Positions 6,796 to 62,567 of a stretch of DNA of 64,000 nt are shown piece by piece; the first letter of the stretch is position 1, and every line of letters begins with the position of its first letter. The position numbers were made by a program, and so were the translations under genes. The DNA is taken from IMG/VR virus record IMGVR_UViG_3300021256_000093; one strand, 5' to 3'. The DNA is from an uncultured virus (IMG/VR IMGVR_UViG_3300021256_000093) (Duplodnaviria > Heunggongvirae > Uroviricota > Caudoviricetes). The notes below the pieces were generated by a model, which was given only the letters and a program-made list of their open reading frames with translations, had not been told where the DNA came from and did no database searches.

Positions 6796-6815
6796 AATAA
6801 TTTAAAATATAATAA

Positions 6816-7280: not shown

Positions 7281-7285
7281 ATAAT

Positions 7286-7897
7286 ATGAAAACAATAAAT
7301 CAATACATACAAGAAAAATTTGAGATAAATAAGAATACAAAGATTATATATAATTATTTTCCTAAAACAAAAGATGAACTTAGGAAGATATTAGAGGAAC
7401 GATTAGCAGAAAATAAGAATGCTAATTTAAATGATATTGATGTTAGTTTAATAACAGATATGGATTTCTTATTTGAAGATTTAAATCCATATAATATTAA
7501 TATATCTGCTTGGGATGTATCAAATGTTACAAATATGGAATATACGTTTGGTGCATGTACAAATTTTAATTCTGACTTAAGTGGATGGGATGTTTCAAAT
7601 GTTACAGATATGGAATATATGTTTGGCGCATGTACAAATTTTAATTCTGACTTAAGTGGATGGGATGTTTCAAAGGTTATTAATATGGGATATATGTTTA
7701 ATGGATGTGATAATTTCAATTCAGATTTAAGTAGGTGGAATGTAAGTAAAGTTAAAAATATGAAGTCTATATTTAATGGATGTGAAAATTTTAATTCTGA
7801 TTTAAGTAAATGGGATGTTTCAAAGGTTAAAGATATGAGATATATGTTTAACGGATGTGATTCTTTAAAAAATAAGCCAAAATGGTATAAAGGATAA
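7286..7897 (+). CDS. DUF285/BspA-like repeat protein with capsid-targeting-like leader
   Basis: same leader; about five 25-aa WDVSxVxxMxxMFxxCxNFNSDLS repeats. Confidence 0.9.
   Translation: MKTINQYIQEKFEINKNTKIIYNYFPKTKDELRKILEERLAENKNANLNDIDVSLITDMDFLFEDLNPYNINISAWDVSNVTNMEYTFGACTNFNSDLSGWDVSNVTDMEYMFGACTNFNSDLSGWDVSKVINMGYMFNGCDNFNSDLSRWNVSKVKNMKSIFNGCENFNSDLSKWDVSKVKDMRYMFNGCDSLKNKPKWYKG
7511..7860 (+). repeat. 75-nt tandem coding repeat (DUF285 units)
   Basis: units at 7511-7585 and 7586-7660 are nearly identical; more diverged copies follow. Confidence 0.85.
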
Positions 7898-7902
7898 ATT
7901 GC

Positions 7903-8367
7903 ATGAAATCGATAAATCAATACATACAAGAAAAATTCGAATTAAATAAGAATACAAAAGTTTCATTAGGTAATGAATATACATTTAATGGATTTAAAAA
8001 ATTAATTTCATCAGAATTGCATACAACAGAAAATATAAATGATGATATTTTTAAACATATGATTAGCGTATTGTTTAATAATGATAAATCAAAATTAAAA
8101 AATATATCATTTATAAATGTATCAAAAGATAAAGAAGAAATTGATTTTTTTAAAAAACAAATAATTCCAAAAGATAGAGATATATCATATTTTAAAAGCG
8201 CTTATTATATTGATTCAGAAAATAAATTACCAGTATTTCATTATTATAATGTTAGTAAAAAAACAGGTTATCCAAATATGGATATATACCAATATAGAAT
8301 TGGATATAATACAGGCAAAGATATTTTTGATATTTCAACGATTCGTTTATTTAAAATAAATATCTAA
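7903..8367 (+). CDS. hypothetical protein with capsid-targeting-like leader
   Basis: MKSINQYIQEKFELNKNTK followed by a non-repeat domain. Confidence 0.8.
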   Translation: MKSINQYIQEKFELNKNTKVSLGNEYTFNGFKKLISSELHTTENINDDIFKHMISVLFNNDKSKLKNISFINVSKDKEEIDFFKKQIIPKDRDISYFKSAYYIDSENKLPVFHYYNVSKKTGYPNMDIYQYRIGYNTGKDIFDISTIRLFKINI

Positions 8368-8394
8368 TAAAATAAATATAAATATAATATATAT

Positions 8395-9024
8395 ATGAAA
8401 GATTTAAATCAATATATACAGGAGAAATTCGAATTAAATAAGAATACTAAATCATTCTTTACGTATAATTATTTTCCTGAAAGTAAAGCAGAGCTTAGAG
8501 AAATATTAGAAGAACGTTTAAGATATGATAAAAATGCTAACTTGAATGATATTGATGTTAGTAAAATATATTATATGAACAATTTATTTTATGGATTAAA
8601 ACCAGAAAAAATAAATATATCTCATTGGAATATGATTAATGTAAAAAGCATAGAAAATATGTTTTTTGGCTGTGATAACTTAGAATGTGATGTTAGTCAA
8701 TGGGATATATCAGAGGTTCGAAATATGAATGGCGCTTTTGCTGGATGCTATAAATTTAATTCAGATGTAAGTAATTGGAAAGTTAAAAATACAGAAGATA
8801 TGGGTGGACTATTTTGTAGATGTTCAAGTTTTAATCAAGATTTATCAAAATGGGATGTAAGTCATGTAAATAATATGACAAATATGTTTATGAGATGTAG
8901 TGCATTTAAGCAAGACTTAAATAACTGGAAACCTAAATCATTAAAAGAATTTAATAATATATTTAAAGATTGTCCATTACAAAATAATCCACCAAAGTGG
9001 TATGAAAAATTAATTAGAAAATAA
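8395..9024 (+). CDS. DUF285/BspA-like repeat protein with capsid-targeting-like leader
   Basis: MKDLNQYIQEKFELNKNTK; FNQDLSKWDVSHVNNMTNMF; PKWY. Confidence 0.9.
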   Translation: MKDLNQYIQEKFELNKNTKSFFTYNYFPESKAELREILEERLRYDKNANLNDIDVSKIYYMNNLFYGLKPEKINISHWNMINVKSIENMFFGCDNLECDVSQWDISEVRNMNGAFAGCYKFNSDVSNWKVKNTEDMGGLFCRCSSFNQDLSKWDVSHVNNMTNMFMRCSAFKQDLNNWKPKSLKEFNNIFKDCPLQNNPPKWYEKLIRK

Positions 9025-9036
9025 TATATATTATAT

Positions 9037-9813
9037 ATGAAAACTATAAATCAATATATACAGGAAAAATTTGAATTAAATAAGAATACTAAAATTATAT
9101 ATAAATATTTTCCAGTAACAAAAGAAGAACTTAGGAAAATATTAGAAGAACGGTTAGCTAAAGATAAAAATGCTAACTTAAATGATATTGATGTTAGTAG
9201 ATTAGATGATTTGAATGGTATATTTAATCAATTAGATCCATGCGATATTGATATATCACGTTGGGATGTGTCAAAAGTAACAGATATGTCATTTATGTTC
9301 TATAATTGTAAGAATTTTAACTGTAATTTAAGTAAATGGGATGTAAGCAATGTTGAAAGCATGGAATATATATTTTGTAATTGTGAAAAATTTGATGCAT
9401 CATGCTTAGAATCGTGGGAACCAAAAAATATTGATGACTTAGAATATGCATTTTCTGGTGTAAAGAAATTTAATGCAGATTTATCAAAATGGAAAACTAA
9501 TAAAGTAGAAAATATGATTTATACTTTTAAAAATTGTGAAGAATTTACTGGAAAGGGATTAGAAAATTGGAATATGTCTAGAGTAAAAGGAACAGTTGGA
9601 ATGCTTTATAATTGTAAAAACTTTAATATTAATGTAGGAAACTGGAAACTTGATAAAGTAGAACATTCACAATTAATGTTTTATGGTTGTAAATCATTTT
9701 TAGGTAAAGGCTTAGAAAATTGGAATTTAAATAATAGAGCCATACATCAAGTAAATATGTTTGATAGTACTCCTATAGAAAAGAAATTACCAAAATGGTA
9801 TATGACGAAATAA
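9037..9813 (+). CDS. DUF285/BspA-like repeat protein with capsid-targeting-like leader
   Basis: same leader; multiple W(D/N)VSxVxxM repeats; PKWY. Confidence 0.9.
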   Translation: MKTINQYIQEKFELNKNTKIIYKYFPVTKEELRKILEERLAKDKNANLNDIDVSRLDDLNGIFNQLDPCDIDISRWDVSKVTDMSFMFYNCKNFNCNLSKWDVSNVESMEYIFCNCEKFDASCLESWEPKNIDDLEYAFSGVKKFNADLSKWKTNKVENMIYTFKNCEEFTGKGLENWNMSRVKGTVGMLYNCKNFNINVGNWKLDKVEHSQLMFYGCKSFLGKGLENWNLNNRAIHQVNMFDSTPIEKKLPKWYMTK

Positions 9814-9833
9814 TATATAAGAAAAACTAATAT

Positions 9834-10328
9834 ATGAAAACATTAAATAATTTTATTATAGAAAAATTTGAATTAAATAAGAATACAAAGAAAACAATAT
9901 CTTCAGATGTAAATATATTTTATTTTTTTGGAAAGGTTCAATTAAATCAATTTCTAGAATCAATATATTTGTTTAAAGCTGCTTACCATGTAGAAGATAT
10001 TATTTTTAGTTTAGATCAACAATTAACTGGAAATACTATTTTTTGTAGTATTACTGATATAGATAATAACATTTTAAAAGTTGAAAATAGTTATAATGAA
10101 ATAATTAATAAAGATGTATTTAATAAGTTTTTAAATAAATTAAATATGAAAGATACTAGTGACTTAGTATTTCAGAATATAGTAAATAAAGTATTTTTCA
10201 AGCCATATAAATGGTTATATATATGGTATAATAAAGATAAAAATGCTATACAATTACATGTATCTTGTATGGATATGGATAAAATTGAAAAATATAAAAG
10301 TAAAGATATATATTTTAGTACAAAATAA
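9834..10328 (+). CDS. hypothetical protein with capsid-targeting-like leader
   Basis: MKTLNNFIIEKFELNKNTK followed by an unrelated domain. Confidence 0.8.
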   Translation: MKTLNNFIIEKFELNKNTKKTISSDVNIFYFFGKVQLNQFLESIYLFKAAYHVEDIIFSLDQQLTGNTIFCSITDIDNNILKVENSYNEIINKDVFNKFLNKLNMKDTSDLVFQNIVNKVFFKPYKWLYIWYNKDKNAIQLHVSCMDMDKIEKYKSKDIYFSTK

Positions 10329-10822
10329 TGAAAACTATAACTAATATTATACAAGAGAAATTTGAATTAAATAAGAAAACATCCAAATATAGATATTTTC
10401 CTAATAAATTTGAGGATTTAGGAAATATTCTAGATGATAAAATAACTAAGTTTGGATATGGTACTGAAGATAAGCCATTTATTTTAAGTGATATTGATTT
10501 TTCAAAAGTAAATACATTATCAAATGCATTTGATTATATAGATTTTGAATATCTTGATATTTCTGGTTGTAATATTGAGCATATTACTAATTTTAGTGGG
10601 TGTTTTCAAGGTTGTAAGAAATTAAAAAAAGTTATAGGATTTGATACATGGAAATTTGATAAGAATGAATCATATGATTTATCATTTATGTTTTATAGAT
10701 GTACTAATTTATGTGATATAGAAGGATTATATAAATTTAAATATAATAGTGAGCATCATGATATTACAAATATGCTAGAAAGTTGTCCTAAATTAAAAAA
10801 GCCAAATTGGTATCTTAAATAA
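10328..10822 (+). CDS. divergent DUF285/BspA-like repeat protein with capsid-targeting-like leader
   Basis: MKTITNIIQEKFELNKK; LSFMFYRCTNL; PNWY; TAATG overlap. Confidence 0.8.
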   Translation: MKTITNIIQEKFELNKKTSKYRYFPNKFEDLGNILDDKITKFGYGTEDKPFILSDIDFSKVNTLSNAFDYIDFEYLDISGCNIEHITNFSGCFQGCKKLKKVIGFDTWKFDKNESYDLSFMFYRCTNLCDIEGLYKFKYNSEHHDITNMLESCPKLKKPNWYLK

Positions 10823-10887: not shown

Positions 10888-12816
10888 TTATTTTGTATTC
10901 ATTTTAAATAATGCTATTGGTAAGAATTTATTTTTATATCCTTCATGAATAAATCCTAATTTAGCTTTCATCTTAATAGTTAATGTTTCATTTTTAAATG
11001 ATGAATCACTACCAACTTTTAATACTAATCCTTTCGCATAAGTAGTATAGATATGATTACTTTCAAAATAATATAAATAATTACTTGAAGATGTATGGTC
11101 TCTAAATCCTACTTTTGCTTCTTCTTGTATACTTTCTGTAATATCTTCACCATTTGAATTTAGTATTTGTAAGTATGAAAATCTTAATACAGGTATATAG
11201 TTACCAAAATTTCTAGCATTAAGTACACCATTATTTAAATAGATATTATTTTCATCACTATTGTTTCCTTGGTAATATTTAACATTTAATATAATCATAT
11301 CATCTTCTTGTAATATTGATACATTTGGATTACCTTCATACCATGAAAACATGTCTTCTGTAATAGGTGTTAATAATTCATCTGGATATTCAACAATTTG
11401 GTCTGTACCTGTATCAAACATATCAGATTCTTCTTTCATGACAACGCCTTTAAGTACTACATAGTTATTATATATTTCTAATATTCCTGCTTCTGAATCT
11501 TTTGGAGCATTATGATAGCTTCTAATTTCAATAGGTAAAGGACGTGATAATGATGGTATATGAACATTATAAGAATCACCAGTTTTTGTTACATTAATAT
11601 TATGGTCATATTTTTCCCATAGCCATTTATAATGTGAATGTCCACAGAACCAGAAATTATTAGGATATTTTTTCATTAAGTTTTCAATAAATTCTCCTTG
11701 GTCACCACGTAAGACATCACTGTGATATCCATAATTTGCATAAGGATAATAACTGTCATTATTTGTCATGAGGTTATTCCAATTATGATAATTACCTGCT
11801 TTATCTGGTAACATTAGATGAGTAAAGATAAAGCAACGATGACCTTTGTTTTCTTCTAGAATATCTGCTAAGCATTGTAATGTTTTAGGATGATATAAAT
11901 GCAAGTCATTATATGTATCAACTTCTGCATGTACTAATAAATCTTCATCTGATAATAAATCTGCATCATGAGTATAATAATTATCAGGATTATTCCAACC
12001 ATATTCTACATTAAGGAATATAAATACATCATAGAAATTATCTGTTTTATTATTATAGTATTTCTTAAAGTAAAAACTAGTTCCTTTAGTATTTCCATCA
12101 GACTCACCTTTTCCATCGTAAGGTTCATTATCATCAAAATAATGTATATCATATTCATTATTCCTATCTATTGCAGATATAGAATTCCATAAGTCATGAG
12201 CGATATATTTAGGTTTAGTATCATGATTTCCTGAACATGTGAATATTGATGTTTCTGGAGCATACTTATCACAGCAATATTTATAGTTTGAAATATGAGC
12301 AGGATCATCTGTTGATATATCACCTGAGCAAGCAATGAAATCTACATTTTGACTTTTAAAATAATTTAAAGCATTGATTAAGTCTTCTGAATATTCTGCA
12401 CCATCATCACTACCTGTATCTGGGTCTTGATCACTAGTATCATAGTCATTATAATGAACATCACTCATTAATCCGATTCTATATATTGGTTCTTGCTCTA
12501 TTTTATTTTTGATTTCTTTACTTCTAATCAAGTTATTAGTACCAGTATTAAAATAGTCTAAATAAACTGCTTCTTTAGGAAATACAAAGAATTCTGGATG
12601 TTCATAGTTATGGTCAAGTGGAAGATATTCTGATAATGCATTATGGTCTTTATCAGCATAGTATACTTTCATATTATCAGTTACACAATCTTCACTAGTT
12701 TTAATTTCCTTATTTTGTTTATTTGATGATAAATAAAGACTATAGTTATCTTCACCATAATTATATATTTTGAGCATATCTAATTGCTCTTTATACGTAT
12801 CAAATAATTCTATCAT
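10888..12816 (-). CDS. calcineurin-like metallophosphoesterase with extra domains
   Basis: SDVH, SGDI, GNHD, FTH and GHSH motifs. Confidence 0.88.
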   Translation of the reverse strand: MIELFDTYKEQLDMLKIYNYGEDNYSLYLSSNKQNKEIKTSEDCVTDNMKVYYADKDHNALSEYLPLDHNYEHPEFFVFPKEAVYLDYFNTGTNNLIRSKEIKNKIEQEPIYRIGLMSDVHYNDYDTSDQDPDTGSDDGAEYSEDLINALNYFKSQNVDFIACSGDISTDDPAHISNYKYCCDKYAPETSIFTCSGNHDTKPKYIAHDLWNSISAIDRNNEYDIHYFDDNEPYDGKGESDGNTKGTSFYFKKYYNNKTDNFYDVFIFLNVEYGWNNPDNYYTHDADLLSDEDLLVHAEVDTYNDLHLYHPKTLQCLADILEENKGHRCFIFTHLMLPDKAGNYHNWNNLMTNNDSYYPYANYGYHSDVLRGDQGEFIENLMKKYPNNFWFCGHSHYKWLWEKYDHNINVTKTGDSYNVHIPSLSRPLPIEIRSYHNAPKDSEAGILEIYNNYVVLKGVVMKEESDMFDTGTDQIVEYPDELLTPITEDMFSWYEGNPNVSILQEDDMIILNVKYYQGNNSDENNIYLNNGVLNARNFGNYIPVLRFSYLQILNSNGEDITESIQEEAKVGFRDHTSSSNYLYYFESNHIYTTYAKGLVLKVGSDSSFKNETLTIKMKAKLGFIHEGYKNKFLPIALFKMNTK

Positions 12817-12830
12817 TGTAAAATAAAAAT

Positions 12831-13919
12831 TTATAATATTTTTGTAAATAATACTTCTATATATTTTTTACTATTATATAATTGGTTTATTAATTTATTA
12901 GTTTTTTGACACAATGATAAATATGAATTCTTACTTTTTATATATTTATTGAATCCTAAAATAGTATTATAGAAATCATCCGTATTTACATATATTGCAC
13001 ATCGTAAGTCATATAATGTTTGCTTAGAATTGATTTTAATATTTTTAGCAATATTTTCTGGTAAAACCAAAACAGTATTATTAGAAAACATATCTAATAA
13101 TGTATAATTAAATTCAGTTATATTATCAAAATCTACTATAAATTCTGAGTCATTAATAACTTTATTATATTCTTCAAAAGATATAGATGGATATATATTT
13201 ATTTTAGTTGTATCTATAATAGAAGTATCTATATTAGTATATGGAGATGGTTTTCCATATTTATCATTGAATAAGTTCTCAATACCTAATGTTTGAATTG
13301 ACTTATTTATACCATATATCTTATATATTAAATCTGATGAAGGATTGTTTTTCTGTAATATATTGAACATACTTAAGTATAACGTAAAATCCATTTTTAA
13401 ATTATTACTAGATATCATAGATATTTGATGGATTTTATGCGTGATACTATTATTAGGAATATTATATACTAATCCAATTTGTATTAATTTATTAGTATCA
13501 TTTATAATATTTTGAATTTCATTATATATTTTATCCTGAGATTCATATATACAAATTTTATGACAAGAATTAAACAATGTATTTATATAACTACTACTAA
13601 AATTATTATACATTTCTTTAACTGAATAATAATGGCAAAATAAAATTTTCTTTATTTTTATGTTTTTTATTAATACATTGTATATATTAATATTAGACTT
13701 AGGTAATGAATGAATAAATATATAGTCAAAATTATCATTGATATTATTTATAAATTCATCTGATGTATTAAATTTCAAATACTGTTCATTATCTTCTGAT
13801 ATTATATATGTTTGTAGAGTAATTTCTGGAAAATATAAGTTTATTCCTGTTTCAAATTCTTTAATATATCGAAGTATGTGCTTGTTTTTTGTATCGTTAA
13901 AAATCTGTAAAATCTTCAT
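12831..13919 (-). CDS. T4 alpha-glucosyltransferase-like GT-B protein, catalytic motifs apparently degenerate
   Basis: colinear resemblance to T4 AGT from memory: DYIFIHSLP~DILIINSVP, FCHYYSV~YQHDHSV, YGINKS~EGLERS, FNYTLLD..NNTVLVL~LEYTHLE..CGTIPVF. Confidence 0.6.
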   Translation of the reverse strand: MKILQIFNDTKNKHILRYIKEFETGINLYFPEITLQTYIISEDNEQYLKFNTSDEFINNINDNFDYIFIHSLPKSNINIYNVLIKNIKIKKILFCHYYSVKEMYNNFSSSYINTLFNSCHKICIYESQDKIYNEIQNIINDTNKLIQIGLVYNIPNNSITHKIHQISMISSNNLKMDFTLYLSMFNILQKNNPSSDLIYKIYGINKSIQTLGIENLFNDKYGKPSPYTNIDTSIIDTTKINIYPSISFEEYNKVINDSEFIVDFDNITEFNYTLLDMFSNNTVLVLPENIAKNIKINSKQTLYDLRCAIYVNTDDFYNTILGFNKYIKSKNSYLSLCQKTNKLINQLYNSKKYIEVLFTKIL

Positions 13920-14030
13920 AAAATAATTAAGTACAAATACCTTTATTTAAAAATAATATTAATATATTACTTAAATTTAATCAGCAAATATTCCTATCTT
14001 ATCATATAAATATATTTCAATATAAATAGT

Positions 14031-14501
14031 ATGAAATGGTTAAATAGTGTAAAGCCAGTAACAGCATATTTGGCTAGTGGGTGGTTTAATCCACCACAAG
14101 AAAGTGCAAGACAAGATATTTTGAAAGTCTTGAATGATAATGAAATATCATATTTTAGTCCTAAAGATGAAGTAGAAGTAAAATCAGATGCAAGCAAAGA
14201 AGATAGAAAGGCTGCATTTGATGCTGATACTCAAATTATCAAGCATTGTGATTTTGTAATTGCAAGTACAGTAGGCAAGGATATGGGTACTCTTATGGAA
14301 ATGGGTATGGCATATGCTTGGGAAACTCCATTTATTGTTTATTTTCCTAATCCTGATAATTTACCAGTTAATCTTATGATTGCAGAATCAGCTTATGCTG
14401 TAGCAGGTAGTGTAGAGGAATTAGATAATATTGTAAAGACATTAAAGAAAAATAGTTTTGATTTTTCTAAGAGACTTGAATATAATGGTAATATTGAATA
14501 A
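14031..14501 (+). CDS. nucleoside 2-deoxyribosyltransferase / nucleotide N-hydrolase family
   Basis: YLASGWFN, DxxxIxxCDFVIA, DMGTLMEMGMAYA (catalytic Glu). Confidence 0.88.
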   Translation: MKWLNSVKPVTAYLASGWFNPPQESARQDILKVLNDNEISYFSPKDEVEVKSDASKEDRKAAFDADTQIIKHCDFVIASTVGKDMGTLMEMGMAYAWETPFIVYFPNPDNLPVNLMIAESAYAVAGSVEELDNIVKTLKKNSFDFSKRLEYNGNIE

Positions 14502-14504
14502 AAA

Positions 14505-15074
14505 ATGATTAATAGTAATTTAACAGAATTTTTATATAATATTGATAATTTACGAAATTTAGTTCGTTATCAAACTGCTCCAAGAGTTTCTTCTGAAACT
14601 GTTGCTGAGCATTCATATTTTGTATCAGTATATGTATTAAAACTTCATGATTATTATAATTTTGATTTAGCAAAAACATTAGAAATGTCATTATTACATG
14701 ATTTTAGCGAAGTATTTATTTCTGATGTTCCTCATCCTATTAAGTCAAAGTATACTAAGATTAATGAGGAATTGACTAAAGCCGAGCATGAAGTAAATAA
14801 GACATATATATCTGAGGAATTTTCAAATAATCTTGAAGAGTTTAATAATCTATCATCCCCTGAAGGTATTATGGTAGCATTAGCTGATATTTTATCAGTA
14901 GTTACTTATTCTAAATATGAGATTAATTTAGGTAACTCAAAATATATGAAAGATGTTTATAATAATGCTGAACGTAGATATAGAGAAGTTATTAAATTAG
15001 CTGAACCTTATCTTAAAGAAAGTTACACATCTACACAAATTTTAGCTTATATTAATGAATTTTATAACTTATAA
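14505..15074 (+). CDS. HD-domain 5'-deoxynucleotidase (YfbR/DatZ-like)
   Basis: RY...ETVAEHSY...LLHDFSEVFISDVPHPIK...LAD. Confidence 0.9.
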   Translation: MINSNLTEFLYNIDNLRNLVRYQTAPRVSSETVAEHSYFVSVYVLKLHDYYNFDLAKTLEMSLLHDFSEVFISDVPHPIKSKYTKINEELTKAEHEVNKTYISEEFSNNLEEFNNLSSPEGIMVALADILSVVTYSKYEINLGNSKYMKDVYNNAERRYREVIKLAEPYLKESYTSTQILAYINEFYNL

Positions 15075-15079
15075 TAATT

Positions 15080-16060
15080 ATGCCAAAAAATAATAATTTA
15101 CAGCCAGCAACTTTGCCAATGCCATTGCGTTTTGGCGAAAAACCAACAACTGAGTTTGTCAATAATCTAGATTCAATTAAAGTAACTTTATTGAATTATC
15201 CTACTATTGAACAATTGATATCTGCTATTATTCCATTTACTAATGCAACATGGAATGATGATCCTATCAAAGTAAGAGATAATATGACTATGAAAGAAAA
15301 GATTCAAAATGTATATGATGCATTTCATTTTAAGTATCTTCCACAGTCATTGGAAACAGTTAATCTTACTTTCTTAATTCAAGGTATTGATTTGCAAACT
15401 GTAACTCATATTCTTCGTAATCGTGTTGGATTTACATTTTCTGCAGAATGTAGTGGAGATAAATGGTGGACACATAAGAGAAGTCTTGTTCCAGCAAGTA
15501 TTGAAAATAGTGATGAGTTTTATGAGAGATATAAGAAATTAACTGAAGAATGTAAGCAATTGTATTGTGATATGATTGACTCTAAAAAGATTTCAATTAT
15601 GGATGCTCGTCATATTCTTAATCGTAATCTTGAAACATATTATCTTGTAAATGTTAATTTCTTGAGTCTATTGAATTTCTTTAGACAACGTATTGATAAA
15701 CAAATTCAACCAGAAGAAGATAATGTATTAGCATATAGGCTATTATTGGAAACTATTAAGAAAGTACCATTTGCAATTAATTGTATTAATATTCATTCAC
15801 CTGCTATGCATTATATTAAGATGGCACGTACAGGTAAAGCAACTAATCTTTATTTCCCTGATAAAGATTCAGATACATTTGAATGGAATGAAAACGATTT
15901 TATTTACCAATGTACTCGAGATGAAATGAATGGTACTAATGAGAATGCAACTAATCATTTTAATGAAGTATTAGCTGAATTTGAAAAGGAATTAAATGAA
16001 GCAGTTTCTCAGGCAAAAGCAAAACTTAATGAATTAGCACAAGGTGAAATCCTATATTAA
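15080..16060 (+). CDS. divergent ThyX/Thy1-like flavin-dependent enzyme
   Basis: LETVNLTFxIxGI, THILRNR (for RHR), DARHIL, NFLSLLNFFRQR; the canonical SQR is replaced by SGD. Confidence 0.7.
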   Translation: MPKNNNLQPATLPMPLRFGEKPTTEFVNNLDSIKVTLLNYPTIEQLISAIIPFTNATWNDDPIKVRDNMTMKEKIQNVYDAFHFKYLPQSLETVNLTFLIQGIDLQTVTHILRNRVGFTFSAECSGDKWWTHKRSLVPASIENSDEFYERYKKLTEECKQLYCDMIDSKKISIMDARHILNRNLETYYLVNVNFLSLLNFFRQRIDKQIQPEEDNVLAYRLLLETIKKVPFAINCINIHSPAMHYIKMARTGKATNLYFPDKDSDTFEWNENDFIYQCTRDEMNGTNENATNHFNEVLAEFEKELNEAVSQAKAKLNELAQGEILY

Positions 16061-16086
16061 TATTATAAATAAATAATTGTAATATT

Positions 16087-16971
16087 ATGTTCATAAGTAT
16101 TGAAGGCGTTGATAGAACAGGAAAAGATACAATTTTGTCAGCTTTAGATAAAAAAACATGCTGGCAAAATTGTAATATGATGAGAGGACCTGCTGGTTGT
16201 CTTACATATGATAAAATATATAATAGAGAAACAAAGCAAAGATATGATGAAGCATTATCTGTAGCTAATACTATTAAATCAACTACTCATTTAATAGTTT
16301 ATCTTTATGCAGATATACAAACTATTACAAAGAGATTAAATGATGAAATAGAAGAAGGTGGTTCAGGATATTTTGCACCAGAACCATGGAGTATTAAAGA
16401 TGTATTAGAATTATATGAAAAGAATATTGATTTCTTATATACCCCTGAAGAAGTTATTAAAATAAATACAGGTAAATATAATGTTGATGATTGTGTATCT
16501 ATGATTATTTCTAAAATGGAAGAGATTAGAGAAAAAGATATGCAATTATTAATAGATACTAATTCAATCCATATTAAATCTCCAAATAAAGGTGATTTTA
16601 ATTATGTACAATATTTACCATTTTCACGAGTATATACTAAATCGGAGTTATTGAATAAGTGTTTTGATATTACTGTTGATAGACCATACTATGAAATGCT
16701 TGAAAAATCATTAGAACATTTATTATATGAAAGAGAATTAGGATGGATTAATGATAGACAATTAGTATTAACATCTAATGATTGTATTCCATATATTCAA
16801 TTAAAGATAACAAATGAATGTATAGAATGGTTTATTAGTCAAAGAAGTTGTGATATTAAAAAACATAAATTAAATGATATATTATTTTTCAAGTATTTTA
16901 CATATAAGAAATTTGTAGATAAAAACTTTAAAATTCATTATTCATGTTCATTTCCTCATGAATATATTTAA
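16087..16971 (+). CDS. dNMP (thymidylate-type) kinase fused to a minimal thymidylate-synthase/dCMP-hydroxymethylase-fold domain
   Basis: N-terminal IEGVDRTGKDT P-loop; C-terminal C-x19-R spacing, QRSCD-x6-ND, PHEY. Confidence 0.72.
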   Translation: MFISIEGVDRTGKDTILSALDKKTCWQNCNMMRGPAGCLTYDKIYNRETKQRYDEALSVANTIKSTTHLIVYLYADIQTITKRLNDEIEEGGSGYFAPEPWSIKDVLELYEKNIDFLYTPEEVIKINTGKYNVDDCVSMIISKMEEIREKDMQLLIDTNSIHIKSPNKGDFNYVQYLPFSRVYTKSELLNKCFDITVDRPYYEMLEKSLEHLLYERELGWINDRQLVLTSNDCIPYIQLKITNECIEWFISQRSCDIKKHKLNDILFFKYFTYKKFVDKNFKIHYSCSFPHEYI

Positions 16972-16982
16972 AATTTGATTAT

Positions 16983-17013
16983 AATGAGATGACTTAAATC
17001 ATCTCATTTTTTT
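16983..17013 (+). terminator. intrinsic terminator
   Basis: AATGAGATGA-CTTAAA-TCATCTCATT followed by a T-run. Confidence 0.8.
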
Positions 17014-17026
17014 ATTTTTATATATA
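17013..17026 (+). promoter_or_regulatory. putative class II (late-type) promoter TATTTTTATATATA
   Basis: exact 14-mer repeated upstream of structural and leader-tagged operons. Confidence 0.55.
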
Positions 17027-17047
17027 TAATATAATTAAAATATATAT

Positions 17048-18652
17048 ATGAAGAAATTTATTGATTATAGAGATCCTGAAATTGTTTCTGAGGTATTTAA
17101 AACAGTAAATGAAAAACTTAAAAAAGAATTAAATAATCAACAGCAAATTAATGAAGTAGTTGATGATGATGACGAAAAGGATTTCTTTTTTAAGAATATA
17201 ATTGTTTTTACAAATGATAGAGATTCTAAGTCAAATAAGACTCTTAAAAATCTTGAAGAAGCAATTAAAGGTAAAGGTGTAAAATTATATCCATTTGTTG
17301 CAGAAGAAATTGATTATAAAGCAACAGATACAAAAATTAAGTTCAATGATAATGTAAATAAGTATACTATTGATGAACAATCTAATGTTGATACAATTGT
17401 TATTACTCGTTTAGGTGCACAAGATTCTGATGAATGTATTGAATTAATTAAAGAACTTCAAGATTGGGGTTTTTTCGTTCTTAATCCTATACAAGCTGCG
17501 CAAAAAGCATCTAATAAGTATACATCTGCAGTATTAATGGAACGTTATAATATTCCTCAACCTAAATTTACATTATTATCTAAAAATGATATTGATAAAG
17601 GCGAAGAATCATTACAAAAGAAACTTAAGTTAATATATAAAGATATTGGTGAAGACGAAGATGCAGATAAGAAAAAAGAATATGTAGTTAAGATTCTTGA
17701 TGGTCATGGTGGTACTGGTGTATTTATGGTTACAGGAAAAACTATATTAAGTATTCTTCAAGCCATATTTGCAATTGACCCTGAAAGAGAACTATTATTA
17801 CAAAAGAAAGAAGAAGCAGATGGCGGTGATATTCGTGTACATGTTCTTACAATGCGTACTGAACAAAAGATTCTCGCATCTATGAAACGTGTTAAGATAT
17901 CTGGCGATTTCCGTTCTAATGTATCTTTAGGCGCTACTGCTGAACCTGTAACATTAACTCCAGAGCAAGAAGAAATTGCATTGAATGTTGCAAAGATTTC
18001 TGGAATGCCATGGTGTGCAGTAGATATTATGCCACTTAAAGCTGGTTCTAATCCAGAGATTGGCGATAATGTAGTGCTTGAATATAATGCTTCTCCAGGT
18101 ACTGATGGTATTTCTGAAGTCATTGGTGAAAACTTTATGGGAATTTTATTAAAAGAAATTAATGATATTAACCAATTAGTATTAACACCAAAATCTATTG
18201 GTTATATTGAAAATGTTCATTTTACATTATCTGATGAATCTGAAACTGAAGTAGAATTTGAAGCTAAATTAGATACAGGTAATGGAGCTAAAGCATCAAC
18301 TATAGGATGCGAAAAAGTTGAACAAAAAGGACATAAGGTTATTGCAACTATTGATGGACAAAAATATACATTTAAATTAGAAGGACAATCAAATGCTATT
18401 GTTGGACAAGTTACTGAAGACCGTCCTACAGTATTAATACCATGTATTCGTATTGGTTCTCGTAAATTATTAAATGTAGAGTTTGCATTAGTTGATAATC
18501 GTAATAAAAAACAAAAAGTTCTTATTAATAGAGATGTTATGAGTAAGATGGGATATTTGATTAATCCTGCTAAAAAACATATCTTAGATGATGATTTATT
18601 ATATGAATTCAATCAAAGGGCTTTAGAAAAAATTAGAAAAAATAAAGAATAA
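17048..18652 (+). CDS. RimK-like ATP-grasp ligase fused to a retropepsin-like protease domain
   Basis: NKY, VVKILDGHGGTGV, DIRV, DFRSNVSLG, AVDI, LEYNASPG; C-terminal AKLDTGNG and VLINR. Confidence 0.88.
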   Translation: MKKFIDYRDPEIVSEVFKTVNEKLKKELNNQQQINEVVDDDDEKDFFFKNIIVFTNDRDSKSNKTLKNLEEAIKGKGVKLYPFVAEEIDYKATDTKIKFNDNVNKYTIDEQSNVDTIVITRLGAQDSDECIELIKELQDWGFFVLNPIQAAQKASNKYTSAVLMERYNIPQPKFTLLSKNDIDKGEESLQKKLKLIYKDIGEDEDADKKKEYVVKILDGHGGTGVFMVTGKTILSILQAIFAIDPERELLLQKKEEADGGDIRVHVLTMRTEQKILASMKRVKISGDFRSNVSLGATAEPVTLTPEQEEIALNVAKISGMPWCAVDIMPLKAGSNPEIGDNVVLEYNASPGTDGISEVIGENFMGILLKEINDINQLVLTPKSIGYIENVHFTLSDESETEVEFEAKLDTGNGAKASTIGCEKVEQKGHKVIATIDGQKYTFKLEGQSNAIVGQVTEDRPTVLIPCIRIGSRKLLNVEFALVDNRNKKQKVLINRDVMSKMGYLINPAKKHILDDDLLYEFNQRALEKIRKNKE

Positions 18653-18677: not shown

Positions 18678-19691
18678 ATGAAACGATTAATAGAATTTAT
18701 TAATGAAGAGCTTAATTCTTCAGAAAAGAAAGCAATCAAAAAATTATATAAATTTTTAAATGAACATACAGGTTCATTAGAAGAGTATGTTGATGCTTTA
18801 AATGATGCTTTAAAAAATGCGGATAAAGGTGATAACGCTAAATATTGGATGGTTGCAATTAAATACTTATTTGATGGTGAACATGGTAAAGATTATAAGG
18901 CGCAAAATCATGTTGCAGTAAAAGTAACAGAGCTTTATCCTACACAATCTGAAATTGATATTGAAAATTCAGCAAAATGGATTACTAAAGATTGGGGAGC
19001 AAAAGGAGCAGGAGATATGTTTAAGAAAGAAGCATTTGGTAAGAAATTCCCAGTCCCTGTATTAGTTTATAAAACAGAAGGAAAATATTGGATTATTGAT
19101 GGACACCACCGTTGGTCTCAAATTGGATTAATTAATAGAGATGCATCATTAGATTGTTTGGTTGTTACAGGTCCTGAAAAAGTTCAAGATTTCTTAAAAA
19201 TCACTCAAGGTGCTATTGCTTCTGTTTTAGCATCAGATAATAAGAATAATGGTAAGAAAGGTGATAAACAATTACCTGTAGGTTCAGCACAACCAGAAAA
19301 TAATATTTTTGGTTCAGCACTTAAAGGAGATAAGCTTAAAGAAAGAATTTCTAAAATGTGTACTGAAAATCTTGATAATTGTAAATTATTACAAGAAGCA
19401 TTAACTAAAGCTAATGTTATTGATAAATCAGGTAAATTTATTAATGAAAGTCAAGACAATCGTAAAGAATTTATTGATAGTTTATCTGAACATGTTATGA
19501 AAAATCGAGATAAAATGCTTGAAGCTAAACAAAATCCACCTAAGTGGGCAGAACCTCGTCCAGTAATGCCACAATCTGATGCAGCAGGTCCTAATGATCC
19601 TAAAAGTGCAAAAGATGGTAGTCCAGAAAATGAAGGTTCAGCATTATATAAAATATTACACAAAGGTAAATTCCCTGATATTGAATCATAA
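18678..19691 (+). CDS. ParB/Srx-like domain protein with capsid-targeting-like leader
   Basis: MKRLIEFINE leader; LYPTQ and WIIDGHHRW. Confidence 0.75.
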   Translation: MKRLIEFINEELNSSEKKAIKKLYKFLNEHTGSLEEYVDALNDALKNADKGDNAKYWMVAIKYLFDGEHGKDYKAQNHVAVKVTELYPTQSEIDIENSAKWITKDWGAKGAGDMFKKEAFGKKFPVPVLVYKTEGKYWIIDGHHRWSQIGLINRDASLDCLVVTGPEKVQDFLKITQGAIASVLASDNKNNGKKGDKQLPVGSAQPENNIFGSALKGDKLKERISKMCTENLDNCKLLQEALTKANVIDKSGKFINESQDNRKEFIDSLSEHVMKNRDKMLEAKQNPPKWAEPRPVMPQSDAAGPNDPKSAKDGSPENEGSALYKILHKGKFPDIES

Positions 19692-46357: not shown

Positions 46358-47218
46358 TTATTTTAATATATCTTCTTTAATTATATTGATTATTTTTTCT
46401 TTAGCTTCTAATGATAATATAGGTATATTTTGTGGACATTCAATATCTAAATTACTTAATAGAATATCCATAGCTGTTGTATCTAATTTATCTACTAATT
46501 CTTTTATTTGTTCATAGTTATTTACTAATCCATTATGATATGAACCCACTATATGTCTTCCAAATGAATTTTCATACATATTAGGCCAAATAATATTATT
46601 TCCTTCATTTGATAATACTATTAAATTAAGCCAGTAAAAATCATATAAGAAATCATTAGAATACATTCCATATTTTTGAACAATACTATATCTTAAAATT
46701 ACTGCAGATGGATCTAATATATGCCATTCTTGAATAAATGAATTCCTATCATTAATCAAATAATTTGCTTCATACATTTCTCTATTATGACCAAGGTTCC
46801 ATTTATTGATTGTCGCAATAGCTTGTTTATCATCATAAAAATTATTATCTAAGCAAAGTTTAAATATCTTATATATATTTGGGTGAACTATATTATCATC
46901 ATCAAGAATATATATCCATGGGTTATCTAAAGACAATTCATTAACTAATGAAATTAATGGAAGATTAAACATATCACCGCCATAATTTTTCTGATTTGGT
47001 TTTCCGCTATCTTTTATATAATAATGTATATTTGTTGTCTTTAAATAATCAATAGCCTTATCTATGTCACCATAGCCATTATTATTATCTTTACATATTA
47101 GCCAAATAATATTAAAATCATTATTATATAAATCATAATTAATATTTATACTTTTGGCAATATATAATAAATTATCAAATCTATAGCAAGCAGTAAGCAA
47201 TATCAATGTTTCTTTCAT
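46358..47218 (-). CDS. GT-A fold glycosyltransferase
   Basis: ILLTACYR N-terminal strand, IIWLI, WIYILDDDN (DxD). Confidence 0.75.
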   Translation of the reverse strand: MKETLILLTACYRFDNLLYIAKSININYDLYNNDFNIIWLICKDNNNGYGDIDKAIDYLKTTNIHYYIKDSGKPNQKNYGGDMFNLPLISLVNELSLDNPWIYILDDDNIVHPNIYKIFKLCLDNNFYDDKQAIATINKWNLGHNREMYEANYLINDRNSFIQEWHILDPSAVILRYSIVQKYGMYSNDFLYDFYWLNLIVLSNEGNNIIWPNMYENSFGRHIVGSYHNGLVNNYEQIKELVDKLDTTAMDILLSNLDIECPQNIPILSLEAKEKIINIIKEDILK

Positions 47219-61596: not shown

Positions 61597-61821
61597 TCAG
61601 CATTGGTAATCATACAATTCTTCCATCATGTCTTTTTTAAGTTGTTTTCTAACTTTAGTTTGACCAGCTTTACGAATTTTTCCAGCATTACGTTTACGAG
61701 ATCCTCCATAAGGTTTATCATCATTTTCAAAATAATGAGTAGGATAAACCATTCCTTGTTTATAATTATGAGGCATTGATTCCTCTAATAATCGTTTACC
61801 TGTTGCCATATTAATATCCAA
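61597..61821 (-). CDS. small basic hypothetical protein
   Basis: 74-aa K/R-rich ORF. Confidence 0.6.
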   Translation of the reverse strand: MDINMATGKRLLEESMPHNYKQGMVYPTHYFENDDKPYGGSRKRNAGKIRKAGQTKVRKQLKKDMMEELYDYQC

Positions 61822-62500
61822 TATCTTCTTTCATAATATCAAATTCATCAGTATAAGTTTTATTATATCCATTAAACCATTTATAATAGAATTCAATTAT
61901 CTTACGTTTCCATTTCTTAGGTGAATATTTTTGAATAGTATTATAATGATTAAATGCCCATTTATAATTATCAATTTTGTCAATAGGAATCCACTTTACA
62001 GATTCAACTTCATTTTCTTCTCCACCTTCTTTATTTACATAATGCGGAATAATCTTACCTAGAAATGCGATATGACGAATTGTTACGTTTCCATTATTAC
62101 ATTCTTTAGGATTTGTTTCTGTATATACTTCTCGTAAATCATCTGTATCAATTTGGAATCCACATTCTTCTAAAGTTTCTCTTGCAATTCCTTCTTTAGC
62201 ACTTTCATATCTTTCAAGGTACCCACAAATAGCATTCCAACAACCTTGATAATCAGGTGTACCAGAACCACGAAGATTTGCTAAGATAGAGTATTTACCA
62301 TTAACAATAGCATATATAAATCCAGATACTGCACAAAACCTTCCAGAATATACTATTTTAGGATCTCCTGTACATGCATACCTTTGTGCTTGTGTCTTTT
62401 TTGAAATTACTTTATTTACTACTTCAGGTTTCCATGCATAATATGGAAAATTTCTACCATACTTTTCCAAGTTATCTTCATTAGGTCTTGTAAAAATCAT
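61811..62500 (-). CDS. NUDIX hydrolase
   Basis: Nudix box GYLERYESAKEGIARETLEECG; WAFNH; likely start at 62500 (MIFTRP) because a promoter motif lies at 62539-62567. Confidence 0.88.
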   Translation of the reverse strand: MIFTRPNEDNLEKYGRNFPYYAWKPEVVNKVISKKTQAQRYACTGDPKIVYSGRFCAVSGFIYAIVNGKYSILANLRGSGTPDYQGCWNAICGYLERYESAKEGIARETLEECGFQIDTDDLREVYTETNPKECNNGNVTIRHIAFLGKIIPHYVNKEGGEENEVESVKWIPIDKIDNYKWAFNHYNTIQKYSPKKWKRKIIEFYYKWFNGYNKTYTDEFDIMKEDIGY

Positions 62501-62538
62501 ATGAACTAAATTTATTAAGTTATTTTTAATTATATATA

Positions 62539-62567
62539 AATATAGGAACACTATTTAAATTATTTAA
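62539..62567 (-). promoter_or_regulatory. putative class I promoter TTAAAT-N17-TATATT
   Basis: recurring motif. Confidence 0.5.

Follow-up and report, generated by a model that had tools for sequence, protein, structure and literature searches.

A conserved, virus-restricted nucleotide module and a candidate route to C5-modified dCMP in a large uncultured phage

The four-gene operon described here belongs to a module that is conserved and restricted to viruses, in which a rewired ThyX-like protein is associated with a nucleoside 2-deoxyribosyltransferase (NDT), an HD phosphohydrolase, a kinase and a minimal ThyA-fold domain (mini-TS) with a cytosine-type active site. On the strength of sequence comparisons and structural models, the pre-replicative synthesis of a C5-modified dCMP by this operon, followed by the glycosylation of the DNA, appears moderately probable. 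The overall interpretation given in the initial annotation, that of a locus for a novel modified base, is partly supported. A literature search found no paper describing this module.

Layout and recurrence of the module

The window analysed is the whole stretch of 64,000 nucleotides taken from IMG/VR record IMGVR_UViG_3300021256_000093, a large uncultured phage. It is very AT-rich, with a genome of about 25% GC. An ORF check confirmed the five ORFs of the initial annotation at the same coordinates (Table 1). Four of them are located on the plus strand (14031-16971) and encode, in that order, NDT, the HD phosphohydrolase, the rewired ThyX and a kinase/mini-TS fusion, with gene-to-gene gaps of 3, 5 and 26 nt. 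The tight packing proposed for these genes was verified, and a terminator-like hairpin with a T-run closes them, a terminator scan having found 1 site, at 16983-17008, against a mean of 0.5 in shuffles of the region. A scan for promoter-like sites produced 39 matches against a shuffle mean of 47.3; in view of this lack of excess, no promoter is claimed in the divergent intergenic region, which was read directly. The module adjoins replication genes.

Table 1. Coordinates and supporting matches of the features in the window
Feature	Position	Strand	Evidence
642-aa protein, weak calcineurin-like phosphoesterase match	10888..12816	-	PF12850 8.7e-4, below curated cut-off
GT-B glycosyltransferase-like (AGT-like), 362 aa, candidate DNA glycosyltransferase	12831..13919	-	Best structural match T4 alpha-glucosyltransferase
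Divergent intergenic region, 111 nt, AT-rich	13920..14030	.	Between AGT-like gene and operon
Nucleoside 2-deoxyribosyltransferase (NDT), 156 aa	14031..14501	+	PF05014 2.4e-16
HD-domain nucleotide phosphohydrolase (YfbR/OxsA type), 189 aa	14505..15074	+	PF12917 YfbR-like 4.3e-19; PF13023 5.4e-18; phrog_7076 2.1e-21
Rewired ThyX-like protein, 326 aa	15080..16060	+	PF02511 3.1e-17, above curated cut-off
YorR/thymidylate-kinase-like kinase domain	16087..16548	+	Residues 1-154 of 294-aa fusion; profile A5: YorR 2axp 1.5e-11
Mini-TS, minimal ThyA-fold domain (~140 aa), cytosine-type active site	16549..16971	+	Residues 155-294 of fusion
Terminator-like hairpin and T-run	16983..17018	+	10-pair stem, 6-nt loop, then TTTTTATTTT; closes four-gene operon
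GT-A (family 2)-like glycosyltransferase	46358..47218	-	Glycos_transf_2 clusters by Atlas features (0.97); TM 0.60-0.64 by Atlas structure
NUDIX hydrolase	61811..62551	-	PF00293 6.7e-10; phrog_1198 1.7e-14

The search for a conserved gene neighbourhood, suggested at the outset, was successful. All five parts were found in 18 of the 31 sources examined, including the cultured Geobacillus phage GR1, and the association is far beyond chance because dozens of phage contigs with no relation to one another carry the same set. Wherever both genes were called (20/20), the mini-TS ORF comes immediately after the ThyX-like gene, starting at -44 to +112 nt relative to the stop codon of the latter. Of the 31 sources, 29 have NDT alongside the ThyX-like gene; the remaining two are cut by the contig end, so that the association holds at all loci with enough flank. 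Fusions of the kinase occur with NDT in 11 of 29 IMG/VR loci, and with the mini-TS in the window, L012 and L058. In six loci (L014, L015, L018, L020, L022 and L038), the ThyX-like gene and NDT occur together, and no mini-TS, HD or kinase gene lies within 6 kb; this core pair must therefore function without the mini-TS. Among 185,579 species genomes only four loci were detected, all on MAG contigs, with NDT, HD and kinase in each of them and the mini-TS in three. A clear alpha-glucosyltransferase (phrog_2888) lies within the module in GR1 (6.2e-53), L029 (6.8e-51) and L030 (1.4e-48), and these GR1-type relatives uphold the DNA glycosyltransferase role that had been proposed.

Enzymes encoded by the operon

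The existence of a TS-fold domain fused to the kinase, as first suggested, is corroborated by an AF2 model of the fusion (pLDDT 94.1), and the nearest solved relatives of this domain are all cytosine-specific C5 enzymes. The mini-TS profile A2 matches T4 dCMP hydroxymethylase (dCH, 3.6e-8), MilA (2.8e-6) and the flavin-dependent dCMP hydroxylase AfhB (9iqu/9iqc, 5.8e-5), and ThyA at 5e-3 or weaker. For residues 153-294 of the model, VIA gave Z 9.1 with T4 dCH, 8.7 with AfhB and 8.6 with TS 6auj, AfhB being rank 4 by Foldseek. R224, C233, R253, S254, D264 and H291 are invariant in an alignment of 26 sequences. In a larger set of 166, Cys146 is present in all, Arg166, Ser167 and His207 in 165 each, and Asp at the ThyA Asn177 position in 164. 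This last change, N177D, is a published determinant of dCMP specificity (PMC13326640, available part). Judging from these alignments, the active site is under strong selection. Position 169, a cofactor contact in the relatives, is conserved as Asp or Asn: Asn169, given as the diagnostic change of flavin-dependent 5-hydroxy-dCMP synthases (PMC13326640, available part), occurs in 85 of 166 sequences, the GR1 group among them, and the window mini-TS keeps Asp169. In one clade, Asn169 is associated with an in-cluster AGT or nitroreductase. The domain is also small, at about 140 aa against 234-264 aa in active relatives.

This small size, which may leave no room for a cofactor pocket in the minimal fold, would fit a covalent-catalysis dCMP deaminase, in which Cys addition at C6 speeds the loss of the 4-amino group to give dUMP. 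The ThyX-like protein would then methylate dUMP and the fused kinase phosphorylate the product, forming a dCMP-to-dTDP conduit consistent with the order of the two genes and with the absence of a dCMP deaminase from Pfam scans of the window. This scheme is nevertheless highly improbable: we know of no ThyA-fold deaminase, residue 169 is still conserved, and the in-module glucosyltransferase of GR1-type phages is left unexplained.

The kinase domain resembles YorR both by profile and by structure (VIA Z 16.0, rmsd 2.4, 143 aligned); TMP kinases are matched by the same profile at about 2e-5 and in VIA at Z about 12. Its P-loop residues G7, G12 and K13 are invariant. The NDT had been annotated as a deoxyribosyltransferase or hydrolase, and the first term appears the better one. 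Profile A8 matches the genuine NDT 6evs at 1.2e-22 and PTD 1s2d at 2.5e-13, and the nucleotide hydrolase DNPH1 only at 0.032, while the invariant residues include the catalytic-position Glu90 and the C-terminal Glu156. By sequence, the protein looks like a true-type transferase rather than a nucleotide hydrolase, a likeness that would fit salvage as well as clearance. The assignment of the HD protein to the 5'-deoxynucleotidases agrees with its YfbR-like Pfam match and with profile A11 (Lin2634 9e-17, YfbR 2.2e-14, OxsA 2.7e-14, DatZ 1.2e-6), and H36, H65-D66 and D128 are invariant in its family.

The ThyX-like protein, as a single sequence, had no phmmer match in the PDB, and its profile reaches T. 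maritima ThyX at 1.2e-4 only, with 703 homologs at E<=1e-3. It shares with canonical ThyX/FDTS (T. maritima TM0449; PF02511) the Thy1 fold, the RHR-type arginines and the equivalents of Arg147 and Arg174; because these arginines are retained, it could still bind dUMP. The motif itself reads RNR in the window, and RHR or RYR in most family members. Its non-canonical character, pointed out initially, is supported: SGRY is changed to SGDK, with Asp-Lys for Arg90-Tyr91, throughout the family, whereas Tyr91 and Ser88 are described as strictly conserved and critical in ThyX, and Arg90 as conserved (PMC11940539, available part). Unlike canonical ThyX, the family also has an invariant Cys before Ser-Gly, conserved extensions of about 30 aa (N-terminal) and 90 aa (C-terminal), no conservation of the His of the HxxPFEH segment, and an obligatory link to NDT.

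A plain supply of dTTP, combined with deoxynucleoside salvage, would make the kinase a thymidylate kinase and the ThyX-like protein a dTMP synthase still functional despite its divergence. HD and NDT would generate deoxynucleosides from host-DNA dNMPs and exchange their bases, serving the needs of an AT-rich genome, the mini-TS being an accessory or regulatory nucleotide-binding domain. The PF02511 score above the curated cut-off, the retained arginines, the grouping of NDT with genuine transferases and of HD with the 5'-deoxynucleotidase YfbR, the TMP kinase matches, the base composition of the window and the adjoining replication genes all agree with this explanation. Moreover, in three complete genomes (GR1, G004 and G005), the ThyX-like protein could be the dTMP synthase, since it is the sole ThyX- or ThyA-type enzyme there. 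This reading is however weakened, and rather unlikely, as the whole family lacks Arg90 and Tyr91 and two of six records also keep a canonical enzyme (ThyX, 1.1e-50, in G002; ThyA, 4.5e-64, in G003). It gives no role to the strictly conserved cytosine-type Cys/Arg/Ser/Asp/His active site, nor to the alpha-glucosyltransferase within the GR1-type module.

The same two records bear on a replacement of thymidine in the style of SPO1 or PBS2, where 5-hydroxymethyl-dUMP would be made, or dUMP favoured, with HD serving as dTMPase or dTTPase: a coexisting ThyX or ThyA would be pointless if thymidine were replaced. Asp rather than Asn at position 177 and the dCMP or CMP enzymes as best mini-TS relatives also make this replacement improbable, despite the usual uracil substrate of ThyX-type enzymes and weak HD matches to PHROGs labelled deoxyribonucleoside 5'-monophosphate phosphatase (5.6e-6, 2.3e-5). 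Classical hmU and dU phages do combine a dTMPase with a dedicated kinase, in line with such a role.

Glycosyltransferases and neighbouring genes

The divergent AGT-like gene has no Pfam or PHROG match, and its product has four cluster matches among 5.8 billion clusters, its own included. By its features in the Atlas, it is related to viral Glycos_transf_1 clusters (score 0.98). The AF2 model has a mean pLDDT of 55.7 and is confident for residues 1-150 only, the C-terminal half being poor. T4 AGT is nevertheless rank 1 by two aligners, Foldseek (1xv5, 3.7e-4) and VIA-align (1y6f_A, Z 13.6, next row 11.3), and the protein is predicted with moderate confidence to fold most like T4 alpha-glucosyltransferase. 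The alpha-glucosyltransferase likeness proposed for this gene finds support in these matches. Its partnership with the operon is less well supported: its conserved neighbour is the 642-aa phosphoesterase-like gene directly downstream, not the nucleotide operon. The same pairing of homologs is found in L060, where it adjoins RecA and not the nucleotide module. Compared by sequence, the AGT-like protein and the GR1-type AGT do not match (E 0.58). As for the second glycosyltransferase and the Nudix hydrolase, also put forward as participants, nothing ties either to the module; the ORF at 46358 has no Pfam or PHROG match, and its GT-A likeness comes from the ESM Atlas only.

Proposed pathway and known systems

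In the favoured pathway, the operon would act as a nucleotide-pool cassette that channels a C5-modified dCMP into DNA. The mini-TS would bind dCMP, its invariant Cys attacking C6 as in ThyA-type enzymes and its invariant Asp reading the N3/N4 edge of cytosine. C5 would then gain a one-carbon or oxygen group; here the Asp169 variant of the window resembles T4 dCMP hydroxymethylase, and the Asn169 of the GR1 type bears the mark of flavin-dependent 5-hydroxy-dCMP synthases. The ThyX-like flavoprotein may provide flavin or methylene chemistry beyond the minimal TS fold, or be a second C5 enzyme. The fused kinase would phosphorylate the product, HD and NDT would break down and reuse the canonical deoxynucleotide that competes with it and, after replication, the AGT-like GT-B enzyme would put a sugar on the new hydroxyl in the DNA.

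The T-even-style pre-replicative roles initially proposed appear to be present and genetically linked, with the same logic as the glucosyl-5-hydroxymethylcytosine pathway (T4 gp42, gp1, gp56, alpha-/beta-glucosyltransferases): a cytosine-type ThyA-fold enzyme, a dedicated kinase, hydrolases clearing canonical nucleotides and a GT-B DNA glycosyltransferase, a candidate in the window. T4 provides the best solved match of the mini-TS and the best fold match of the AGT-like protein. However, the TS-fold part of the window is short and kinase-fused, against 246 aa for T4 dCH, the kinase is YorR/TMPK-like and not gp1-like, and clearance is assigned to HD and NDT, no gp56 homolog being seen in Pfam scans of the window. 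The rewired ThyX is always in the module, whereas T-even phages are without ThyX.

In nucleoside-antibiotic pathways, the MilA/MilB and BcmA/BcmB pairs combine a ThyA-fold CMP hydroxymethylase with an NDT-fold N-glycosidase, and they share with the module the genetic pairing of a cytosine-type TS-fold enzyme with an NDT-fold enzyme, MilA being the second-best solved mini-TS relative. These pathways use ribonucleotides and release the free base, whereas the window NDT resembles deoxyribosyl transferases and is set in a phage replication module.

The flavin-dependent 5-hydroxy-dCMP synthases HY126 AfhB, RB69 gp48 and DLP3 gp80, reported with glycosylated 5-hydroxycytosine in the available part of PMC13326640, have in common with the proposed pathway the ThyA fold, dCMP, flavin C5 chemistry and subsequent DNA glycosylation; a YorR-like kinase (3kb2) is also tabulated there for DLP3_078. 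In contrast, the window mini-TS has Asp169, not Asn, and the published enzymes are standalone, of about 234 aa, and without a ThyX-like, NDT or HD partner; in a text search of that paper, the terms ThyX, deoxyribosyltransferase and HD domain each came up 0 times.

The undescribed pyrimidine initially suggested is not established by these data. Because the window mini-TS shares the Cys146/Asp169/Asp177 pattern of T4 dCMP hydroxymethylase, the known base glucosyl-5hmC is a serious candidate, and any modified base of this phage may be one already described.

The operon, its surroundings and its conservation

The window derives from a large tailed phage and is very AT-rich (GC 21-33%). It also encodes a baseplate gene, a tail-fibre-like gene of 2632 aa, RecA, a muramidase and a Thoeris-inhibitor homolog, and metagenome contigs as long as 287 kb carry close homologs of its genes. 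All the ORFs were recovered at the positions given in the initial annotation. The four plus-strand genes are indeed tightly packed, with spacers of 3, 5 and 26 nt, and the terminator proposed after them corresponds to the sole terminator-like hairpin within 12700-17200, directly 3' of the operon. The RimK-like and ParB-like genes further downstream were considered as additional members and rejected: no homologs were found in the loci L001-L009, and the terminator-like site lies between them and the operon. Elsewhere in the window, the 332-aa protein matching Tad3 is a candidate anti-defence gene. Paralogs similar to the tandem array that follows RecA also adjoin RecA in the relative L060.

Positions and matches of the features discussed, in the window and in other phage loci
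Source	Position (strand)	Feature	Match
Window	349-1347 (-)	332-aa protein; N-terminal 138 residues similar to Tad3, Type I Thoeris inhibitor	PF25185, 3.2e-22
Window	6394-10822 (+)	seven paralogous ORFs in tandem, directly after RecA	DUF285 (BspA-like repeats) in the first five, those scanned with Pfam; E down to 3e-58
Window	10888-12816 (-)	642-aa protein directly following the AGT-like gene	weak metallophosphoesterase
Window	12831-13919 (-)	AGT-like gene, 362 aa	
Window	14031-14501 (+)	NDT	PF05014, 2.4e-16; 60.3 bits (cut-off 28.8)
Window	14505-15074 (+)	HD protein	PF12917, 4.3e-19; 69.3 bits (cut-off 25.9)
Window	15080-16060 (+)	ThyX-like protein	PF02511, 3.1e-17; 63.4 bits (cut-off 24.8)
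Window	16087-16971 (+)	kinase-mini-TS fusion	TMPK below cut-off, 14.9 bits (cut-off 27); no Pfam TS match
Window	17048-18652 (+)	RimK-like ATP-grasp, C-terminal extension of ~160 aa, just past the operon terminator	PF08443, 3.8e-22
Window	18678-19691 (+)	ParB-like nuclease-domain protein, next after the RimK-like gene	PF08857, 2.2e-5
Window	57584-58357 (-)	N-acetylmuramidase endolysin with peptidoglycan-binding domain	PF11860, 1.5e-58
Window	60064-60657 (-)	ferritin/rubrerythrin-like protein	PF00210, 4.6e-14
L018	56-8781	canonical ThyX, Fpg-type DNA glycosylase, two dUTPase_2-like genes, ThyX-like gene, NDT, NAD-dependent sugar epimerase/dehydratase	
L029	3810-4838 (+)	kinase ORF with N-terminal extension of ~200 aa	weak NUMOD3 in the extension (scan covered L029)
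L032	3789-4838 (+)	kinase ORF with N-terminal extension of ~200 aa	
L034	3761-4549 (+)	gene in the slot held by the alpha-glucosyltransferase in sister phages	T5orf172/MUG113 domain
L042	4445-6525	short ThyA homolog, longer TS-like ORF directly upstream	
L048	4706-6297	short ThyA homolog, longer TS-like ORF directly upstream	PF00303, 1.9e-19 (short homolog)
L060	8071-10029 (+)	homolog of the window's 642-aa protein, directly following the AGT-like gene	weak metallophosphoesterase

Conservation of the gene neighbourhood, suggested at the outset as a check, is evident. A family-HMM scan of 31 sources (the window, the cultured Geobacillus phage GR1 and 29 IMG/VR loci, eight of which repeat L002-L009) detected all five parts of the module, namely NDT, HD, ThyX-like gene, kinase and mini-TS, in 18 of them. 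Four sources are devoid of the mini-TS only; in three of these the contig ends right after the ThyX-like gene, and in the fourth, L035, a kinase occupies the mini-TS position. Two more are cut upstream by the contig end, and in L027 the ThyX-like gene was missed by the ORF caller and found by TBLASTN. The remaining six (L014, L015, L018, L020, L022 and L038) carry the ThyX-like gene and NDT only. Genes of the dUTPase_2 type lie upstream in L015 and L018, the two examined of these six, one of those in L015 being fused to an NT5C 5'-nucleotidase domain. The L015 ORF located 3' of the ThyX-like gene was rejected as a hidden mini-TS (hhalign probability 0.1). The sugar enzyme adjoining NDT in L018 may hint at nucleotide-sugar supply.

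NDT is found beside the ThyX-like gene in 29 of the 31 sources, the other two being truncated by contig ends. The mini-TS ORF starts between -44 and +112 nt from the ThyX-like stop codon in all 20 sources where both were called, the overlaps being possible overestimates because starts are longest-ORF calls. Kinase fusions recur within the same scan, with NDT in 11 of the 29 IMG/VR loci and with the mini-TS in L012 and the window; the next gene 3' of the module usually encodes Pol III alpha or a PolB-UDG polymerase. The gene in L034 and the kinase extensions of L029 and L032 may reflect the insertion of homing endonucleases into the module.

GR1, whose recorded host is G. stearothermophilus ATCC 10149, is the only match in a set of 50,697 phage records (52% identity). 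In its replication region, NDT and HD are accompanied by a glycosyltransferase, a P-loop kinase, a nitroreductase, the ThyX-like gene and an ORF of 151 aa that is homologous to the C-terminal domain of the window's fusion. Only four loci with the ThyX-like gene were retrieved among 185,579 species genomes, all on MAG contigs; each of them has NDT, HD and a kinase, and three have the mini-TS. The module is thus conserved and virus-only.

The enzymes of the module

In NDT, Glu90 is invariant within a D-x-G-T-x-x-E-x-G segment and corresponds to the WELG glutamate of 6evs; this residue is presumably the catalytic nucleophile. A DNPH1-type dNMP hydrolase is not favoured, the profile giving 0.032 for DNPH1 versus 1.2e-22 for a genuine NDT. 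The metal-binding motif H...HD...D of the HD protein (H36, H65-D66, D128) is invariant and its family profile retrieves YfbR at 2.2e-14, which places it in the YfbR-like HD family as a putative 5'-deoxynucleotidase. The top PHROG of this protein, annotated as a dATP triphosphohydrolase, had suggested an aminoadenine Z-genome. This reading was discarded: in the profile search DatZ ranks well below both YfbR and OxsA, and Pfam scans of the window revealed no PurZ-like gene.

The kinase P-loop GxxxxGK (G7, G12, K13) is invariant, and the kinase profile matches YorR, an SPbeta prophage protein, at 1.5e-11 and thymidylate kinases at ~2e-5. The description of the fourth gene as a dNMP kinase fused to a TS-fold domain is upheld by its AF2 model (pLDDT 94.1, pTM 0.83), in which two domains are apparent. 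Residues 1-154 match YorR best (Z 16.0), then thymidylate kinases (Z ~12). Residues 153-294 match T4 dCMP hydroxymethylase (T4 dCH, Z 9.1), the HY126 flavin-dependent dCMP hydroxylase AfhB (Z 8.7; the identity of its entries 9iqu/9iqc was established through fold searches) and a bacterial TS (Z 8.6), with concordant Foldseek results. A mini-TS profile built from eight members ranks T4 dCH (3.6e-8), the CMP hydroxymethylase MilA (2.8e-6) and AfhB (5.8e-5) first, thymidylate synthases scoring 5e-3 or weaker. The relative L003d matches PF00303 at 2e-14. The modelled mini-TS is a minimised TS core of ~140 aa, 134-138 of which can be aligned over most of the length of chains of 234-248 aa; the full-length TS fold, cofactor-binding elements included, comprises ~230-265 aa.

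An exhaustive profile search returned 277 mini-TS cluster representatives at E<=1e-10, mostly free-standing (150-217 aa) and some with the domain C-terminal in proteins of ~280-356 aa. The family corresponds to phrog_35203, annotated as unknown. No ThyX-like/mini-TS fusion occurs among the best 150 of the 277 (lengths 77 to 356 aa). These 150 and 16 seeds, numbered after E. coli ThyA, were used for a residue census (n=166). Cys146 is present in all 166, Arg166, Ser167 and His207 in 165 each and the Arg126 equivalent in 154, and the mini-TS consequently retains the active site of ThyA-type TS (catalytic Cys, R166-S167, H207). The Asn177 position is Asp in 164 of the 166, including D264 of the window, which aligns with Asp179 of T4 dCH. 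At the Asp169 position, 85 sequences have Asn, 74 Asp and 5 Glu. The window has Asp (QRSCD), as in the T4 dCH alignment, and lacks the D169N change of 5-hydroxy-dCMP synthases (AfhB, RB69 gp48); Asn169 carriers include GR1, L029-L034 and L056. PMC13326640 identifies N177D as the mark of dCMP specificity and D169N as that of flavin-dependent 5-hydroxy-dCMP synthases.

A search from a narrower mini-TS alignment returned 15 loci. Eight have the known module: seven with the ThyX-like ORF called and L054, which is on the same contig as L027 with this ORF uncalled. The others encode short ThyA homologs (224-231 aa); four of the five scanned score PF00303 at 1.9e-19 to 4.3e-18, L042 being the one that does not. 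ThyX-like, NDT and HD genes are absent from these short-ThyA loci, which were taken as a clade neighbouring the mini-TS and left out of the module counts. In L042, L048 and L050-L052, a short homolog of 224-226 aa has a longer TS-like ORF directly upstream; a kinase lies near in L048, L050 and L052, while in L042 it forms a fusion with the longer ORF, and none was found on L051, a short contig. Such pairs may constitute a related but distinct pyrimidine cassette.

The ThyX-like family comprises 703 homologs at E<=1e-3, and a single-sequence search found no solved relative. Its conservation greatly exceeds that of the neighbouring genes, with 41-57% identity between loci versus 15-30% for the mini-TS across those loci. 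As in T. maritima ThyX, both Arg of the RHR motif (invariant; RNR in the window), the ARxxLP arginine and the Arg174 equivalent are retained. In contrast to that enzyme, the HxxPFEH histidines have no counterpart, conserved N- and C-terminal extensions are present, and the Ser88-Gly-Arg90-Tyr91 loop is replaced by Cys-Ser-Gly-Asp-Lys-Trp-Trp, in which Gly126 and Asp127 are nearly invariant (38 sequences). The protein thus deviates from the ThyX motif RHR-x7-S and its loop, and the designation as a non-canonical ThyX was justified. According to PMC11940539 and PMC6514825, Ser88 and Tyr91 of ThyX are critical and Arg90 is a conserved dUMP contact.

The distribution of canonical enzymes bears on the rival explanation that the operon provides plain dTTP supply. 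The genome record G002 encodes a canonical ThyX (1.1e-50) 5 kb from the ThyX-like gene, and in G003 (98% complete) the latter coexists with a canonical ThyA (4.5e-64). GR1, G004 and G005, all complete, possess the ThyX-like gene without canonical ThyX or ThyA. This mixed pattern, coexistence in two genomes and the ThyX-like gene alone in three, suggests without proving it that the ThyX-like protein is not redundant with a canonical TS. We consider plain dTTP supply rather unlikely. PMC7824862 notes that the occurrence of ThyA and that of ThyX are usually anticorrelated among jumbo phages.

The glycosyltransferase link

The label "AGT-like" is reasonable and only moderately supported. The AF2 model is confident only at residues 1-150, with pLDDT below 50 at residues 151-348. 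T4 AGT ranks first for this model, weak as it is at 151-348, both by Foldseek (3.7e-4) and by VIA, which is independent of Foldseek (Z 13.6 versus 11.3 for the next row). The initial assignment may hold at the level of fold, and it is not matched in sequence: the protein has no Pfam match and no PHROG match at E<=0.01, does not group with phrog_2888 by sequence profile and scores E 0.58 against an HMM from the GR1-group AGTs. Only four clusters, its own included, match it in a database of 5.8 billion clusters; by ESM Atlas features it is closest to viral GT-B clusters.

In the window, the AGT-like gene borders the operon and is transcribed divergently from it. In L060, whose RecA is 87% identical to that of the window, the AGT-like homolog adjoins RecA, and a homolog of the 642-aa phosphoesterase-domain gene directly follows it, as in the window. 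The conserved unit of the AGT-like gene is this pair, not the operon.

A glucosyltransferase within the module is found elsewhere. In GR1, L029 and L030, a phrog_2888 alpha-glucosyltransferase (6e-53 to 1e-48) lies between HD and kinase, and an HMM of these three proteins also has matches in L031 and L032. Immediately 5' of the ThyX-like gene, a nitroreductase-family protein is encoded in GR1, L029, L030, L032 and L033 (Pfam) and in L031 (HMM from the nitroreductases of the other loci). Neither gene was found within 6 kb in the 16 loci of the Asp/Glu169 type. The co-occurrence of both with Asn169 counts as a single event, since the carriers form one clade.

A predicted modified-cytosine pathway

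To our knowledge, a strictly conserved cytosine-type, Cys-dependent TS active site is found only in enzymes modifying C5 of (d)CMP. Together with its fusion or coupling to a nucleotide kinase and, in one clade, its association with a T4-type DNA glucosyltransferase, this active site makes a modified-cytosine pathway, with somewhat better than even confidence, the best explanation of the module. The weak point of this reading lies in the roles of the ThyX-like protein and NDT: these two make up the universal core, and the model accounts for them least.

More speculatively, and in our estimation improbably, the ThyX-like flavoprotein and the mini-TS could form a two-component pyrimidine C5 enzyme making a modified deoxycytidylate for DNA. 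In this scheme, the mini-TS would bind dCMP through a Cys-C6 adduct, to which the ThyX-like partner would deliver a flavin-borne methylene or oxygen. The product, a modified deoxycytidylate possibly not yet described, would be channelled towards DNA by the fused kinase and glycosylated later. If true, this would be the first case of two unrelated thymidylate-synthase folds cooperating.

Our literature search found no description of a module combining ThyX-like protein, NDT and mini-TS, and no paper naming Geobacillus phage GR1. New here are the cytosine signature recognised in the mini-TS at residue level, the AGT found inside the module in the GR1 clade, the cultured carrier and the Asp/Asn169 split, tied to the 2026 work on 5-hydroxycytosine (PMC13326640). 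Since GR1 is cultured, the modified-base question is directly testable.

Base modifications let phages escape restriction enzymes and certain CRISPR systems, and are a source of biotechnology tools. Every pre-replicative pyrimidine pathway known to us uses a full-length ThyA homolog. Here, a rewired, virus-only ThyX family of 703 homologs is locked to NDT and usually also to a mini-TS (277 representatives). If the modified-cytosine reading is true, the module would extend DNA hypermodification by a new enzymatic route and perhaps by new chemistry, and would account for the misannotation of many phage proteins as "thymidylate synthase (FAD)".
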